Below, one piece after another: positions 5,021 to 26,914 of a stretch of DNA of 26,914 nucleotides. Origin of the DNA: Gemmatimonadales bacterium. GTDB taxonomy: Bacteria; Gemmatimonadota; Gemmatimonadetes; Gemmatimonadales; GWC2-71-9. The notes below the pieces were generated by a model. It was not told where the DNA came from and searched no databases. It worked only from the letters and a program-made list of their open reading frames with translations. The number at the start of each line of letters is the position of its first letter. The stretch's first letter is position 1. The position numbers and the translations under genes are program-made. The DNA lies in assembly GCA_035934835.1 (NCBI GenBank), contig DASYXP010000037.1, forward strand, positions 1 to 26,914, in the 5' to 3' direction.

Positions 5021-6577
5021 TCATCGCGTGGAGGCCAGGCCGCCGGTGCGCGGAGGCACGTAGTGCACCGCCGGGCGCGCGAGGGCCCGGTCGATCAGCT
5101 CCTGCACAGCGGGCGGCGGCGGCGCCAGCCCGTACTGCGTCTTCACCGCGTTGATCGTGGCCGCCAGCATCCCTTCGTAGTAGAAGGGGTTGTGCACGCC
5201 ATACGAGCCATCGGAGTGGCTGTACTGGGTCGCCTCGGCGAACATCTGGGCGTTGAAGAGGCCACCCTCGGCCGTGGTGACGGCGTTGGCCGCGTTGAAT
5301 TCGGACGGCGTGGTGGCATAGATCTGGGCCAGGTAGCCGCTGTCGGTCGGGAATGCGTCCAGCGTCCCGTTGTGGTTCACGTCGTTCCACAGCTGGTTGA
5401 CAAGGCCGGCGACCGTGGCCCGCTCGTTGTTGAAGAGGTTGGTCACGACCGTGGCGTCGGCGTGGCAGCCGCTCTGGGTGCAGCTCCCCCAGTTGCGCGC
5501 CGTGGAGGTGTAGGCGCAGCTGTTGTCCGCCACCGGCACCCCGGCGCCATTGACGCACGGTGCCGGCCGGAACAGGTGGCCCACCGACTGGAAGACGAAC
5601 CCGTTGCTGTCGGTGACGGTGAACGGGTGAACGTGGCAGCCGGCGCACAGCAGCGGGTTCGACGCCGAGCCGTGCGTGGTGTAAGCGCCGGACGAATCGT
5701 AGGTGAAGCCCGGCGGCACCCAGCCCGCGCCCTCGCCGATCAGGATGGCGCCCTGCACCGCGTGGGCGCCGCGCGAGCCGCGGGTGAAGTTCGAGGCCGG
5801 CGTGGTGTTCCGCCAGTGGCACTGCATGCAGAGATTGACCGACGGGTCGGGCGAGGTGATCGGCAGCCGGAGGCTCGCGGTGTTGGGCGAGCCGTGCGGA
5901 TCGTGGCAGACGACGCAGGTGATCGTCTGGGTGTTGCCGCTTGACGCTTCGGCGTAGACGTTCGACCCGCCGAACCGCGCCAGCGCGGCCTTCCCCTCGT
6001 GGCACCCCTGGCACCCGGCGGTGGTGGCCGGATGGTCGTTGGCCGCCGAGTCGCCGTGGCCGGACGCCGCCCACTGCTCGACGAACGGCTCGTGCGCGCC
6101 GCTGTGGCAGGCGCCACAGCTCGCGAGCGTGTCGTGCAGGCTCATGTGGGCCAACGGGGCGGTCCCGCCGTCGGGGTTGCTCACGTGGGTCTGGCCCGGG
6201 CCGTGGCAGGACTCGCACTGGACGTCCTGGTAGACCGTGGACGGCACCTTGTCGTAGCCGGCGCTGTCCCGGCCGTTGCCGTTGCCGGAGACCGTGTGGC
6301 AGGTCTTGCAGTAGCCCGCCGCGTTGGCCGGCAACGCCGACCACGCCTTGGCGTGGGGGCTGTTGCTGAGCCACTGCCCCTGCGTGGTGGCGTGGCAGTT
6401 GCCGCAGGTGGTCTGCTTGGTGGCGGTGTTGTAGTACCCGAGGAATCCGTTCGTCTGGTCGGGCGGCGGGTTGAACGGCGCGCGATCGCGATAGACGATC
6501 TGGTCGCAGCCGGCGAGGGTGAAGACGAGCACCGCCGAGGCGGTGAGGAGCAAGGTCATCCGTGACGTGCGACGCAT
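5021..6577 (-). CDS. Lipoprotein multiheme cytochrome (8 CXXCH + 1 CX4CH), c554/NrfA-superfamily-like
   Basis: GGAG RBS upstream. Lipobox LAGC. CGNCH, CKTCH, CESCH, CGACH, CQGCH, CVVCH, CMQCH and CAGCH plus CTQSGCH. 'VQCESCHGPG' and the C-terminal 'DGSYGVHNPFY' are typical of this superfamily. No CXXCK. Confidence 0.88.
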   Translation of the reverse strand: MRRTSRMTLLLTASAVLVFTLAGCDQIVYRDRAPFNPPPDQTNGFLGYYNTATKQTTCGNCHATTQGQWLSNSPHAKAWSALPANAAGYCKTCHTVSGNGNGRDSAGYDKVPSTVYQDVQCESCHGPGQTHVSNPDGGTAPLAHMSLHDTLASCGACHSGAHEPFVEQWAASGHGDSAANDHPATTAGCQGCHEGKAALARFGGSNVYAEASSGNTQTITCVVCHDPHGSPNTASLRLPITSPDPSVNLCMQCHWRNTTPASNFTRGSRGAHAVQGAILIGEGAGWVPPGFTYDSSGAYTTHGSASNPLLCAGCHVHPFTVTDSNGFVFQSVGHLFRPAPCVNGAGVPVADNSCAYTSTARNWGSCTQSGCHADATVVTNLFNNERATVAGLVNQLWNDVNHNGTLDAFPTDSGYLAQIYATTPSEFNAANAVTTAEGGLFNAQMFAEATQYSHSDGSYGVHNPFYYEGMLAATINAVKTQYGLAPPPPAVQELIDRALARPAVHYVPPRTGGLASTR

Positions 6578-6657
6578 CGGGGGACTCCGTGGTTTCCCGG
6601 ATGGCGTATATTCAAGTCTCTCCCGGTTTGGCGCAAGCCGAAAAAGGTGAAACGACT

Positions 6658-7341
6658 ATGAAACCAGCTTCAGGTAGCCATTGCCCCAGCTGCGGCCAGC
6701 TGACCGGCGAAAGTGCCCGATTTTGCGCGAGTTGCGGAGCCACGTTGCAAACCGCACCGCGCAAGGGACCTAGCTCCTTAATGCTTGCGGCTGGCGGGGT
6801 CGTGATCTTCGCCTTGGGCCTCGGGCTCGGCTATCTCGCGGCCGGCGATCGCGGGCGGGCGCCTCAGCCGGTCGCCGCGGACGCCGGTGGCGCCGAGGCG
6901 GCGCCGCCCGACATCAGCAACATGTCGCCACGGGAGCGGTTCGACCGGCTGTACGACCGGGTCATGCGCGCCGCCAGTTCGGGGGACGAGGCCACGGTCC
7001 AGCGCTTCGGGCCGATGGCCGTCGCCGCATACGGGATGCTCGACAGCGTCGACGACGATGCCCGCTACGACGCCGCGCTCCTGAAGATCCACCTGGGCGA
7101 TGTGGCCGGCGCCAAGGCCCTGGCCGACACCATCCTCAGGCGCACGCCGACGCACCTCTTCGGCCTCATGATCCGGGGCACGCTCGCCCGCGCCGCCAAG
7201 GACAGCGTCGGCGCCCGGCGGAATGAGCGGGCCTTCCTCGCGGCCTATGACAAGGAGATGACCAGGGCCCGGCCCGAGTACGCCGAGCATAAGTCCGCCC
7301 TCGACGCATTCCGCGCCCAGGCCCAGGGCGACGTGAAGTAG
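6658..7341 (+). CDS. Zinc-ribbon / single-TM / TPR-like helical protein, 227 aa
   Basis: ATG at 6658 after AAAGGTG. CPSC..CASC zinc ribbon, TM helix (LMLAAGGVVIFALGLGLGYLAAG), then a helical-repeat-like domain (ARYDAALLKIHLGDVAGAKALADTIL). Confidence 0.75.
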   Translation: MKPASGSHCPSCGQLTGESARFCASCGATLQTAPRKGPSSLMLAAGGVVIFALGLGLGYLAAGDRGRAPQPVAADAGGAEAAPPDISNMSPRERFDRLYDRVMRAASSGDEATVQRFGPMAVAAYGMLDSVDDDARYDAALLKIHLGDVAGAKALADTILRRTPTHLFGLMIRGTLARAAKDSVGARRNERAFLAAYDKEMTRARPEYAEHKSALDAFRAQAQGDVK

Positions 7342-23419: not shown

Positions 23420-24297
23420 TGTTCGACTCCCTTGCCGATGCGGTCGCGCGCGCCGAGTCCGAGCGGGTCTCACTCGGCGAACTGGCGCTCCGGGTGGAGG
23501 CCGAAGCGGGGCTCAAGACCCGCGCGGAGATCGAGCGGAGCCTGCAGCGCGCGCTCGACGTGATGCGGAGCGCCATCGCCCGGGGCGACCAGGGCGACCT
23601 CAAGAGCGTGAGCGGACTCGTCGGCGGCGACGCGGCCCGGCTCCGCGCCCCCAAGGGCCCGCTCGGCGGGACGCTCTTCACCGACGTCCTGGCCGGGGCG
23701 CTGGCGGTGCAGGAGGTGAACGCCGCGATGGGCGTCATCGTCGCTGCCCCGACCGCCGGCGGCGCCGGCGTGCTCCCGGGGGTCCTGCTCGGGATCGCCG
23801 CCCGGAAGGGCCTCGACGACGCCACCCTGGTCCGTGGGCTGGCCATCGCGGGGTTGGTCGGGGCGGTCGTGGCGGTGCGTGCATCCCTGAGCGGCGCGGA
23901 GGGTGGGTGCCAGGCGGAGACCGGCGCGGCGGCCGGCATGGCCGCGGCGGCGGGGATCGAGGTCCTCGGCGGCACGCCCCGTCAGGCGGCCCACGCCGTC
24001 GCGCTGACGATGCAGGGCACCCTCGGGCTCGTCTGCGATCCGCTCGGCGGGCTGGTCGAGGTCCCCTGCGTCTACCGGAACGCCACCGGCGGGGCGATGG
24101 CCCTGGCAGGGATCGAGATGGCGCTGGCCGGGGTGGAGTTCCCCATACCGGTGGACGAGGTCATCGACACCATGGGGGAGATCGGCCGATCGATGGACGT
24201 CCGCTACCGGGAGACCGCGGGTGGCGGGCTGGCGGCCACTCCCACCGGCCGGAAGCTCGCCAAGGAGCGGCTGGTACAATTGAAGAAAGGGCGGTAG
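23419..24297 (+). CDS. sdaAA: L-serine dehydratase (Fe-S dependent) alpha subunit
   Basis: 'IVAAPTAGGAGVLPG', 'GGCQAE' and 'LGLVCDP..GLVEVPC..RN' (three Fe-S Cys). TGATG overlap with sdaAB. Confidence 0.95.
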   Translation: MFDSLADAVARAESERVSLGELALRVEAEAGLKTRAEIERSLQRALDVMRSAIARGDQGDLKSVSGLVGGDAARLRAPKGPLGGTLFTDVLAGALAVQEVNAAMGVIVAAPTAGGAGVLPGVLLGIAARKGLDDATLVRGLAIAGLVGAVVAVRASLSGAEGGCQAETGAAAGMAAAAGIEVLGGTPRQAAHAVALTMQGTLGLVCDPLGGLVEVPCVYRNATGGAMALAGIEMALAGVEFPIPVDEVIDTMGEIGRSMDVRYRETAGGGLAATPTGRKLAKERLVQLKKGR

Positions 24298-24309
24298 GTG
24301 GGGGGGCGT

Positions 24310-24399
24310 GGTGCTAGGTGCCGGGTGCGATCAGGACCTGATTTGCACCGCGGTGGCCGCCAAAGTTCCGGTCACCTCCAGCCCCTAGCACCTCACACC
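24310..24399. repeat. Degenerate heptamer arms in inverted orientation around an inner palindrome
   Basis: GGTGCTAGG (24310-24318) and CCTAGCACC (24384-24392) are perfect inverted copies within GTGCTAG/CTAGCAC-type heptamer runs. Inner palindrome ATCAGG-A-CCTGAT (24330-24342). Confidence 0.6.
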
Positions 24400-24407
24400 T
24401 TCCAATC

Positions 24408-24434
24408 TGAAACATCCTGAAACGTCCCCCCGTA
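24408..24434 (+). promoter_or_regulatory. ECF-sigma-type promoter TGAAAC-N17-CGTA
   Basis: TGAAAC 24408-24413 and CGTA 24431-24434, 9 bp before the ATG at 24444. A second TGAAAC lies at 24418-24423. Confidence 0.5.
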
Positions 24435-24443
24435 GGTGCACCC

Positions 24444-24830
24444 ATGATCGAACATCAGATGGCCGGGCGACCGGGTGATCCCGGCCTCAAGTGGGTGATC
24501 CTTGGCGGAGTGGCGGGGGTCGGCACGTTCCTGGTCTTTCTGGCCGCGTTGGCGGATCAGCTCCGGTTCACCGACCCCGGGGCAGTTCCGGCCGTGGCGA
24601 TCATGGGGCTGGCGGGGGCTGCGGGGTTCGCGGCCCTGGCACTCGGCCCCGTCGGCCGGGCGATGGCCAAGCGGATCGTCGGATCCGACCAGTCGGTCAC
24701 CGCCCAGGTCGACGGCGAATTGCAGGACATGCGCCTCCAGGTCGAGGACCTGCGGCAGGCGCTCACTGAGACGCACGACCGGCTCGACTTCACCGAGCGC
24801 CTCCTCGCGGGCAGCGAGAAGCGGAGCTGA
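24444..24830 (+). CDS. Paralog 1/7: small membrane protein (2 TM + coiled coil, ERLDF-type motif)
   Basis: GPVGRAMAKRI ... ETHDRLDFTERLL. Confidence 0.85.
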   Translation: MIEHQMAGRPGDPGLKWVILGGVAGVGTFLVFLAALADQLRFTDPGAVPAVAIMGLAGAAGFAALALGPVGRAMAKRIVGSDQSVTAQVDGELQDMRLQVEDLRQALTETHDRLDFTERLLAGSEKRS

Positions 24831-24831
24831 C

Positions 24832-25101
24832 ATGGACGGATTCGTGGGGAGCCTGACGGGGCTGGTCGCGGTGCTTGCGATCTTCGGCGTGCCGGGCGTC
24901 TGGCTCCTCGGCAAGTCGGATATCGGCAAGGCCATCGTGGAACGCATCCGGCACGGCACCCACGGACTTCCGGACCCGCAGTTGTTGGCGGAACTCGACG
25001 AGATGAAGGACCAGCTGGCCGAGGTCCAGGACCGGCTCGAGTTCGCGGAGCGGACCATGGCCGCGCTCAAGCCGGGTGCTGCCCGCGCGAGCAGCACGTA
25101 G
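24832..25101 (+). CDS. Paralog 2/7: small membrane protein (1 TM + coiled coil), 89 aa
   Basis: ATG at 24832, 1 bp after the previous stop. SDIGKAIVERI ... EVQDRLEFAERTM. Confidence 0.85.
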   Translation: MDGFVGSLTGLVAVLAIFGVPGVWLLGKSDIGKAIVERIRHGTHGLPDPQLLAELDEMKDQLAEVQDRLEFAERTMAALKPGAARASST

Positions 25102-25161
25102 CCGGTCGCTGATGGCCGGTAGCTGATAGCTCTCCCAACGCCCAACGACTGGCGACCAACG
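25099..25161. repeat. Two adjacent heptamer arrays (TAGCTGA type and CCCAACG type)
   Basis: TAGCCGG TCGCTGA TGGCCGG TAGCTGA TAGCT, then CCCAACG CCCAACG ACTGGCG ACCAACG. Confidence 0.75.
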
Positions 25162-25166
25162 ACCCC

Positions 25167-25424
25167 ATGGAAGACATCCTCGCCATCATCCTGATCTTCG
25201 GCGGCGGCACCGCCATCGCGATCTCGTTCAGCCCCATCGGGCGGGCGATCGCCGAGCGGATCCGCGGCAAGGCGGCGTTCGCCGATCCCGACCCGCAGGT
25301 CCTGGCCGAGCTGGATGATCTTCGGGGGCAGCTGGCGGAACTCCAGGAGCGGATGGACTTCTCGGAGCGGCTCCTCGGCCAGGCCCGGCCGGAGCGGGCC
25401 ATCGATGCCGGGGGGACGCACTGA
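25167..25424 (+). CDS. Paralog 3/7: small membrane protein (1 TM + coiled coil)
   Basis: SPIGRAIAERI ... ELQERMDFSERLL. Confidence 0.88.
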   Translation: MEDILAIILIFGGGTAIAISFSPIGRAIAERIRGKAAFADPDPQVLAELDDLRGQLAELQERMDFSERLLGQARPERAIDAGGTH

Positions 25425-25780
25425 TGGCGCGCCGGGAGCGGGGCACCGGGTTCGAGCGCCTGCTGCCCATCGTGGGCCTCACGGTGATCGGGTACGTCGT
25501 GGTGGCGCTCAACGTGGGGGTGCCGTTCGCGGTGCCGGGGTTCTTCTTCCTCCTCGCTGGTGGCGTGGGATTCCTCTTCTCGCCGATGGGACGGGCCCTG
25601 ACGCGGCGCTTCGAGGCCGATGCCGGGCATCTGGCACCCGAGATCCCCGGCGAACTGCTCACCGAAGTCGACGAACTTCGTGGCCGGGTGGCCGAGCTGG
25701 AGGAGCGGCTCGATTTTGCGGAGCGGATGCTGGCGCATCACGGCGACCGGCCCGAATTGCCGGCGCCAGGGAGGAACTGA
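25424..25780 (+). CDS. Paralog 4/7: small membrane protein (2 TM + coiled coil)
   Basis: TGATG overlap. SPMGRALTRRF ... ELEERLDFAERML. Confidence 0.88.
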   Translation: MARRERGTGFERLLPIVGLTVIGYVVVALNVGVPFAVPGFFFLLAGGVGFLFSPMGRALTRRFEADAGHLAPEIPGELLTEVDELRGRVAELEERLDFAERMLAHHGDRPELPAPGRN

Positions 25781-25781
25781 G

Positions 25782-26075
25782 GTGGGCCCGGTAAGTTCGC
25801 AGGGGGATCTGATCCAGGTCGTCGTGATCGTCGGCTCGCTGATCCTCTTCGGCCGCGTCGTGCGGTACATCGGCCCGGCGCTCGCCCGGAGGCTCGGCGG
25901 CGAAGCAGACAGTGGCCGGCGGGCCGACGCGCTCCAGGCCGACGTCGACGACCTCAAGGCCCGGCTGGCCGACCTGGAGCACGATCGCGACCGGCTGATC
26001 GAGCTCGAGGAGCGCCTCGACTTCACCGAGCGGATGCTCGCCAAGCCGTCCGACCCGCGGCGCACGGGGCACTGA
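25782..26075 (+). CDS. Paralog 5/7: small membrane protein (1 TM + coiled coil), 97 aa
   Basis: GTG at 25782, GGGAGG 7 nt upstream. IGPALARRL ... ELEERLDFTERML. Confidence 0.85.
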   Translation: MGPVSSQGDLIQVVVIVGSLILFGRVVRYIGPALARRLGGEADSGRRADALQADVDDLKARLADLEHDRDRLIELEERLDFTERMLAKPSDPRRTGH

Positions 26076-26351
26076 GTGGACTTCGAGACTGGCCTCAAGG
26101 TGCTGCTGTACATCGCGGCGGCGGTCGCCATCCCGGTCGGGGCGTATGCGGTGATCGCGGCCATCCGGGCCATCTGGGGCAAGGATGAACCGGGGAAGCT
26201 CGGCGCCGAGGATGCCGCGGCGTTGCGGGAGCGGGTGGAGGAGCTCGAGACCCAGGTGGCGCGGCTGGGCGAGCTCGAAGGCCGGCTGGAATTCACCGAG
26301 CGGTTACTGGCGCAGGGGAAGGCGAGCGACGCACTGCGTGGGGAGGACTGA
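26076..26351 (+). CDS. Paralog 6/7: small membrane protein (1 TM + coiled coil)
   Basis: GTG directly after the previous stop. ELEGRLEFTERLL. Confidence 0.85.
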   Translation: MDFETGLKVLLYIAAAVAIPVGAYAVIAAIRAIWGKDEPGKLGAEDAAALRERVEELETQVARLGELEGRLEFTERLLAQGKASDALRGED

Positions 26352-26352
26352 G

Positions 26353-26670
26353 ATGCTGCAGGCCATTCCGCCGGTCCCGCCGCCGCCCGCCGCGGTCCTC
26401 TTCCCGGGCGGCCAGCCGGCGGCCGCGATGCTGGTGTTCGCCCTCGCGGCCATCGCGGCGATGACGCTGATCCTCTTCCCGCTGGTCCGCGCGTGGGCCC
26501 GGCGGCTGGAGGGGGGTGCCCCCCGCGACGACAGCGACCTGCAGGTCGGTGCGCGGGTGGAGCACCTGGAGCAGCGGCTGGCCGATGCCGAGGAGCGGCT
26601 CGATTTCGCCGAGCGGATGCTGGCGCGCGGCGCGGAAGCACCCGCGCTGCCTCGGGAGAAGGCGGACTGA
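26353..26670 (+). CDS. Paralog 7/7: small membrane protein (1 TM + coiled coil), 105 aa
   Basis: ATG at 26353 after GGGAGG. FPLVRAWARRL ... DAEERLDFAERML. Confidence 0.85.
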   Translation: MLQAIPPVPPPPAAVLFPGGQPAAAMLVFALAAIAAMTLILFPLVRAWARRLEGGAPRDDSDLQVGARVEHLEQRLADAEERLDFAERMLARGAEAPALPREKAD

Positions 26671-26720
26671 CGGCCCGGGCCTGTCCCGGCGGAGTTACAT
26701 TCTTGGCGGGAGGGAAAGCG

Positions 26721-26914
26721 ATGATCACGGTGGACGACGTCGAGGGATTCCTCGACCGGCTGGACGGCGGCACCCTGCAGTCCCGCGCCGCGGGCGAGGG
26801 GCTCTGGCTGGTCCGCACCCCGGACGGGCTGGAGGTGGCGGTCAATGCGGTGGCGCCGCTCCTGGTGCTCCGGATCAACGTGATGCGGCTCCCCAAGGAC
26901 GCGAAGAAACTGGC
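26721..26914 (+). CDS. 5' part of a CesT/YbjN (T3SS-chaperone-like fold) protein, truncated by window end
   Basis: GGGAGGG RBS, ATG at 26721, frame open to the window end: MITVDDVEGFLDRLDGGTLQSRAAGEGLWLVRTPDGLEVAVNAVAPLLVLRINVMRLPKDAKKL. The helix-plus-strands pattern fits this fold. Not in the ORF track because there is no stop. Confidence 0.6.
   Translation, partial: MITVDDVEGFLDRLDGGTLQSRAAGEGLWLVRTPDGLEVAVNAVAPLLVLRINVMRLPKDAKKL

Follow-up and report, generated by a model that had tools for sequence, protein, structure and literature searches.

A tandem array of diverged small membrane proteins upstream of the CesT-like and pspA genes in Gemmatimonadales

The array locus

The window analyzed here, 26,914 bp in length, is an entire contig (C67) of a 1.96-Mb metagenome-assembled genome of a Gemmatimonadales bacterium that is 71% complete. 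Near its end, at positions 24444-26670, seven consecutive genes on the + strand encode diverged paralogs of a small membrane protein (g1 to g7; 85-128 residues), hereafter the array. It is preceded by a promoter-like motif of the extracytoplasmic function (ECF) sigma factor type, and is followed by the 5' part of a CesT_Tir_1/YbjN-like gene which, in orthologous loci, stands immediately before pspA, the gene of the Psp (phage shock protein) system encoding PspA/IM30. Close relatives of the assembly carry Gemmatimonadales or Gemmatimonadota labels, and matching DNA turns up repeatedly in soil metagenomes. The features of the locus are as follows.

24408-24434, + strand: TGAAAC-N17-CGTA, a promoter-like motif of the ECF (sigma-W) type; its end is 9 nt short of the g1 ATG
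24444-24830, + strand: g1, 128 residues; two predicted transmembrane (TM) helices, GPVGRAMAKR segment, coiled coil, RLDFTERLL
24832-25101, + strand: g2, 89 residues; one TM helix, RLEFAERTM
25167-25424, + strand: g3, 85 residues; one TM helix, SPIGRAIAER segment, RMDFSERLL
25424-25780, + strand: g4, 118 residues; two hydrophobic segments, RLDFAERML; start codon overlapping the stop of g3 (ATGA)
25782-26075, + strand: g5, 97 residues, GTG start; one TM helix, longer coiled coil, RLDFTERML
26076-26351, + strand: g6, 91 residues, GTG start; one TM helix, GRA segment absent, RLEFTERLL
26353-26670, + strand: g7, 105 residues; Pro-rich N-terminus, one TM helix, RLDFAERML
26721-26914, + strand: 5' part (64 codons) of the CesT_Tir_1/YbjN-like gene, cut by the contig end

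The listing of open reading frames (ORFs), together with inspection of the start codons, bears out the run of seven genes reported in an earlier note made from the sequence alone, whose description of the array matches in nearly every detail. The tight spacing that it described applies to five of the six junctions, which measure at most 1 nt, but not to the sixth, g2/g3: the gaps from g1 to g7 are, in order, 1, 65, -1, 1, 0, and 1 nt. This sole long gap (25102-25166) contains short repeated units (GTAGC.G / CCCAACG-like), and neither a promoter motif nor a terminator was found in it. Scanning of positions 24200-26914 returned no sigma-70 promoter and two terminator-like sites, located inside coding sequence and at chance level, neither of them convincing.

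Architecture of the array proteins

A hydropathy scan reports one TM core each in g2, g3, g5, g6, and g7, and two in g1, while g4 comprises one scored core and a second hydrophobic stretch judged by eye, in keeping with the one or two TM helices per protein given earlier. Three or four Lys/Arg residues directly follow the last TM segment in the array proteins, which predicts a cytoplasmic C-terminus. For g3, AlphaFold2 modeling from an alignment of 59 members (mean predicted local distance difference test (pLDDT) score 84.6) yields three helices: a TM helix (residues 2-21), a basic amphipathic helix (residues 23-36), and a coiled-coil helix carrying the conserved motif (residues 43-73). A bitopic layout, with an N-terminal TM segment and a helical cytoplasmic C-terminus, is predicted from hydropathy, the positive-inside distribution, and this model. 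Foldseek comparison of the g3 model with AlphaFold/Swiss-Prot returned only weak matches to the SEY1 tail (E ~1, TM-score 0.3) and is uninformative for a three-helix model.

The main helix ends, in all seven proteins, with the motif R-[LM]-[DE]-F-[ATS]-E-R-[LMT]-[LM], as had been claimed, and its R, F, E, and R residues are invariant in the alignment of the seven. Among 460 family members, both arginines and the glutamate of this box are conserved at 100%, the phenylalanine at 99%, and the aspartate at 93%. The pattern occurs nine times in the six-frame translation of the 1.96-Mb assembly, in the seven array genes and in two solitary family members. In our own heptad reading of g3, made from the sequence and the AlphaFold2 helix span and not a tool output, the L/M and F residues of the box would occupy core a/d positions flanked by the invariant charges, an arrangement that agrees with a conserved interface between helices. 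Across the family, variability is high in the TM and N-terminal parts, as the earlier note had observed for the N-termini of the seven. The GRAxAxR segment, which it held to be usual, is clear in g1, g3, and g4 and has a degenerate form in g2, g5, and g7, whereas g6 lacks it; the PDPQ.LAELD stretch common to g2 and g3 is present.

Distribution of the family

The array proteins fall under no Pfam, NCBIfam, or PADLOC model. Pfam analysis of the seven proteins reports scattered coiled-coil noise only, and PADLOC returned zero matches, hence no tie to known defense systems. A profile search retrieves more than 3,448 family proteins from the databases, labeled "hypothetical" or with loose COG-type names, and each of the seven array genes matches the family profile with E values of 1e-21 to 1e-32. 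When one genome per species is scanned, the family proves almost confined to Gemmatimonadota. A survey of copy number and neighbors with the family profile, a check that the earlier note had proposed, yields about 80 fetched array loci (Gemmatimonadales), with tandem arrays of 3-14 copies and conserved neighbors that include pspA; about two thirds of the array junctions across these loci are of 4 nt or less. The phylum survey gives the following occurrence by taxonomic family.

Own taxonomic family: present in 125/125 genomes, 2 to at least 16 copies per genome
Sister family: 3/3 genomes, 1-7 copies
Third family of the order: 33/70 genomes, 1-3 copies, weak matches
Other families of the class: most genomes, 1-5 copies
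Four more distant families: 0/20 genomes, none

Solitary members also exist. One (L008:488-985; G000:C56) is a fusion of a TM2 domain (PF05154) to the coiled-coil box, and another (L009:1483-1809; G000:C29) comprises two TM helices and the box. A solitary relative (L010:614-892; G000:C317), directly 3' of a BshC-like gene, possesses a TM helix and the GRA segment, and its C-terminus reads ENQFLQRL instead of the box. A mini-array of three genes (G078:C72:9261-10254), seen in a different family of the class, is located on a contig other than that of pspA, and one weak member there lies just upstream of pspA.

Genomic context and the link to pspA

Clustering of the genes that flank the arrays reveals a conserved order: UvrA, the serine dehydratase beta and alpha subunits, the array, the CesT_Tir_1/YbjN-like gene, PspA/IM30, and DUF1611 or an AI-2E transporter. 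The CesT_Tir_1/YbjN-like gene (131 residues) lies downstream of the array in 31 loci and PspA/IM30 in 55, and the genes upstream of the array in the present contig are those of the conserved order. The 63-residue CesT-like fragment encoded here returned no Pfam match on its own; its ortholog in a genome of the same genus (L104:7034-7426) matches CesT_Tir_1 (1.1e-19) and YbjN, and is followed after 5 nt by a PspA_IM30 gene (5.6e-47), so that the same-genus locus reads array, CesT-like, PspA, DUF1611. The CesT-like gene stands immediately before the PspA_IM30 gene in this ortholog and in dozens of related loci. Among 41 relatives, nearly all genomes of the two array-bearing taxonomic families carry a single pspA within ~0.4-1.5 kb of the array. 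The earlier note had held that the lack of a genomic link to Psp would speak against its interpretation; such a link is found, since the array is followed by the CesT/YbjN-like gene and the sole pspA in the ortholog of the same genus as well as across the taxonomic family. From this conserved order, pspA is expected just beyond the end of the present contig.

PspB has PspC as its obligate partner. PspC was found in 5 of the 41 relatives, in each case without linkage to the array, and was not found in the present assembly (71% complete). PspA would therefore operate in most of these relatives without its usual membrane partner.

The promoter motif

Taken as a -35 element TGAAAC and a -10 element CGTA set 16-17 nt apart ahead of the first gene, a sigma-W-type motif precedes the array. 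TGAAAC/CGTA corresponds to the sigma-W-type ECF consensus described for Bacillus (PMC5758882). Of 79 loci, 57 carry TGAAAC-N17-CGTA upstream of the array, a frequency to be compared with 2.25% for randomly drawn 280-nt windows. The motif also stands directly before the CesT-PspA pair in three of the four fetched loci that are devoid of an array (L101, L103, L105). The whole assembly contains four copies. Three relatives contain 5-8 copies each, versus 0-3 for the reversed pattern, and several of the sites are near-identical in two or three genomes. In relatives, the motif is placed 123 nt upstream of one ECF sigma gene (G002) and separates a second such gene from a putative anti-sigma ORF (HxxxCxxC motif, TM segment, no Pfam match); it also precedes genes encoding a small regulator with PAS and Fis-HTH domains, an outer-membrane efflux protein (OEP/TolC-like), and an ABC ATPase. 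Sites of this motif set include G000:C151 ~5936-6999 (- strand) and loci L118 and L121 of G002. As judged from the genes that it precedes, the motif set looks like a small conserved ECF envelope-stress regulon that includes the array-pspA operon.

Age of the paralogs and selection

Compared with their orthologs in the same-genus genome G002, the array proteins exhibit 41-79% identity (79% for g3), and ratios of non-synonymous to synonymous divergence (dN/dS) of 0.11-0.53, with dS near saturation. The individual values are 0.36 for g1, 0.11 for g2, 0.22 for g3, 0.14 for g4, 0.53 for g5 (over 67 aligned residues), 0.44 for g6 against the nearest G002 gene, and 0.20 for g7. A tree built from 81 array members of eight genomes pairs g1, g2, g3, g4, and g7 with their counterparts of equal rank in other arrays, mostly at a support of 100/92 or better. 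The g1 protein clusters with the first array gene of four related genomes (100/99), and g7 with the last array gene of four related genomes (100/99). The g2 protein clusters with the second gene of the G002, L023, and L024 arrays (100/98, 4 rows), the second gene of L022 joining this group one fork out (88/93). The g4 protein forms an ortholog pair with a G002 gene (100/100), and g5 is a long branch. This same-rank grouping across genomes indicates that the duplications predate these lineages. By these comparisons, the paralogs are evidently old, have kept their rank order, and are under purifying selection, and the gene order is kept with apparent gains and losses in the middle of the array.

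Proposed function and alternatives

We lean towards the view that the locus is an ECF-driven envelope-stress operon in which the diversified bitopic proteins partner PspA at the membrane or anchor it there. The genes, the conserved family, the gene context, and the promoter motif are observed; the topology, the co-transcription with pspA in this genome, and the binding are the inferred parts of this view. The operon would be read from the ECF-type (sigma-W-like) promoter through the seven small bitopic paralogs and the CesT/YbjN-like gene to pspA. Each paralog would be anchored in the inner membrane by its one or two variable TM helices, and would present on the cytoplasmic side a basic amphipathic helix and a coiled-coil helix of ~30 residues with the near-invariant E-R-x-D-F-x-E-R-x-L box. 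The shared box may bind a common partner, be it PspA, the CesT-like chaperone, or the sister paralogs, and the divergent membrane parts may diversify where or when this binding happens. The earlier interpretation, a diversified sensor or adaptor array related to Psp or else a hetero-oligomeric complex, is in part supported: the genomic link to Psp and the PspB-like layout stand, but homology to PspB stays below threshold, and the sensor, adaptor, or hetero-oligomer roles are conjectural. Co-folding of PspA, the CesT-like protein, and the cytoplasmic part of g3 (residues 23-85) gave a score of 0.00 with partner pLDDT values below 50, and provides no verdict either way.

Four points weigh against PspA partnership. 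First, no pspA was found in the present assembly, so that the link is drawn from orthologous loci; with the assembly 71% complete and the contig broken off at the CesT-like gene, this negative result is not evidence of absence. Second, both this genome and other families of the class have solitary members at a distance from pspA, so that the family is not strictly tied to PspA. Third, one family of the order (L101, L102, L103, and L105, from genomes G027, G033, G025, and G039) keeps UvrA, serine dehydratase, CesT-like, and PspA genes and is devoid of the array; PspA is therefore not strictly dependent on the array proteins, and the CesT-PspA dyad is the older core to which the array was added. 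Judging from these loci, the array looks like a later insertion between the promoter and the dyad. Fourth, the sole RNA evidence consists of contigs from two soil metatranscriptome libraries, ~96% identical and thus from close relatives, one aligned to 25135-25662 and spanning g3-g4, the other to 26361-26770 and spanning the g7/CesT-like junction. They are compatible with expression and lend it weak support, as these are contigs and not reads and may derive from DNA.

The solitary members and the TM2-domain fusion away from pspA speak for a first alternative, unlikely in our estimate but worth weighing, in which the paralogs would form a self-contained hetero-oligomeric membrane complex through the coiled-coil box, stabilizing or organizing the stressed membrane, with PspA merely a co-regulated neighbor. 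The placement of the box L/M and F residues at core a/d positions in the g3 heptad reading would suit a shared oligomerization interface, and the rank order kept across genomes is what subunits of a defined complex would show. However, co-regulation alone leaves unexplained the tight and widespread placement of the array directly upstream of CesT-PspA behind one motif, and a copy number that ranges from 3 to at least 14 between genomes argues against a fixed stoichiometric machine.

Relation to PspB

The earlier note had called the array PspB-like. The layout fits, and three methods each place PspB closest among the named families; all of the scores lie below threshold, however, and homology is not established. 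Among NCBIfam models, TIGR02976 (PspB) is the commonest match, with hits in 13 of 59 members (best E 5.6e-4); g3 reaches 18.2 bits (E 0.0023) where the cut-off is 51.7 bits, and Pfam PF06667 matches none of the 59. The hhalign comparison with 119 diverse PspB sequences returns a probability of 86.5% (P 4.6e-6) and a score of 33.7 over 29 columns, against 18.0 +/- 3.9 (maximum 30.5, n=60) for heptad-preserving column shuffles and 22.4 for reversed PspB. This profile-profile comparison exceeds the shuffle maximum, but the KcsA C-terminal bundle scores about as well. Scored with the hidden Markov model (HMM) of the family, real PspB sequences reach 20.5 bits at most, with a median of 9.4, whereas reversed PspB reaches 7.5 bits at most, with a median of 1.4; some alignments are collinear from the TM segment to the box. 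The nearest named ESM-Atlas cluster is PspB (0.80), which serves as a lead only.

Full-length KcsA, with its TM2 and C-terminal helical bundle (PDB 3pjs/3eff/1f6g), matches the family profile with E values of 3.8e-4 to 2e-3. This match probably reflects composition and layout and not ancestry; a TM segment followed by a charged coiled coil can give such signals, which calls for caution in the comparison with PspB. Weighing these comparisons, the layout is PspB-like, and the case for homology to PspB appears roughly evenly balanced.

If the homology were real, the array could consist of highly diverged true PspB proteins that signal membrane stress to the operon regulator through the ECF sigma/anti-sigma pair in place of PspF, with no anchoring of PspA. 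We think this quite improbable. The TIGR02976 hits, the hhalign score above its shuffles, the preference of the family HMM for forward over reversed PspB, and the ESM-Atlas neighbor speak in its favor, as does the presence in the motif set of the putative anti-sigma ORF that follows an ECF sigma gene. Yet all of the scores fall below the curated cut-offs, PF06667 is never matched, and KcsA scores similarly (E 3.8e-4); most of the relatives yielded no PspC, the partner that PspB requires, and nothing ties the array proteins to the sigma/anti-sigma pair.

Lastly, it is hardly credible that these ORFs are spurious, or that they stem from a recent amplification, selfish or degenerate, that serves no function: high-GC DNA does give many long spurious ORFs and start-codon inspection reports no evident Shine-Dalgarno sequence for g1, but thousands of homologs, positional orthologs across genera, the dN/dS values of 0.11-0.53, and a near-invariant motif confined within the assembly to family members all speak for genuine, constrained genes.

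Comparison with known systems

PspB of the proteobacterial pspFABC system (PF06667/TIGR02976) is likewise a small bitopic protein, with an N-terminal TM segment followed by a cytoplasmic helix, encoded beside pspA, and both its helix and that of the array proteins end in an L-E-x-x-L-D/E-like stretch. In contrast to PspB, the array family possesses its own invariant R-x-D-F-x-E-R box and occurs as 3 to at least 14 diverged tandem copies where PspB is found as one or two. The array is also located upstream of pspA, without pspC or PspF, and behind an ECF-type instead of a sigma-54 promoter.

A CesT_Tir-type gene directly before pspA, as seen in the orthologous and the array-less loci, resembles the CesT/Tir-PspA dyad of the E. 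coli YjfI-YjfJ type (Ravi et al. 2024, PMC11237479). The partners of published dyads are Band-7/flotillin, AAA+, and YqiJ-type proteins, and the same survey mentions PspB duplicates but neither Gemmatimonadota nor arrays of small bitopic paralogs (PMC11237479); a second survey is likewise silent on both (PMC9239133).

Operon-encoded membrane proteins that serve PspA have a precedent in the pspA operon with YdjG, YdjH, and YdjI, which are required for bringing PspA to the membrane (PMC8581546). In this operon, as is proposed for the array locus, a TGAAAC/CGTA-type ECF promoter drives pspA together with the membrane protein genes. However, YdjG, YdjH, and YdjI are unrelated in sequence to the array proteins and are located after pspA, whereas the array is one expanded family located before it. 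LiaI of B. subtilis and PspM of M. tuberculosis are also small, lineage-restricted membrane proteins encoded with a PspA homolog (PMC11237479). Unlike the array, they are single genes, and no sequence relation was seen, apart from a PspM match of one member (E 0.0039).

The statement of the earlier note that no named system has this organization holds for Pfam, NCBIfam, and the literature searched, the CesT/Tir-PspA dyad itself being published (PMC11237479). Literature searches pairing Gemmatimonadota or Gemmatimonas with Psp returned nothing relevant. What is new is the family and its array layout, which are absent from Pfam, NCBIfam, and the literature searched; in our assessment, this is an envelope-stress module of the Psp type whose expanded membrane component is novel.

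Implications

PspA/Vipp1 proteins are the bacterial ESCRT-III membrane-repair machinery and, to our knowledge, how they are targeted to damaged membrane is largely open outside a few model organisms. Returning to the array proteins as membrane partners of PspA, a bolder and rather speculative version, which we consider unlikely as it stands, is that the ordered paralogs constitute a combinatorial membrane platform that nucleates or shapes PspA polymers, each TM segment reading a different membrane state. If this were true, the array would represent a new class of ESCRT-III membrane adaptor, unrelated or distantly related to PspB.

In this mostly uncultured soil lineage, a single pspA is paired with 3 to at least 14 diverged, rank-conserved small membrane proteins sharing one box. 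The array is thereby a concrete candidate for a new adaptor family, and would offer a natural experiment in which one output motif is coupled to many membrane inputs, as well as an annotation for thousands of "hypothetical proteins".

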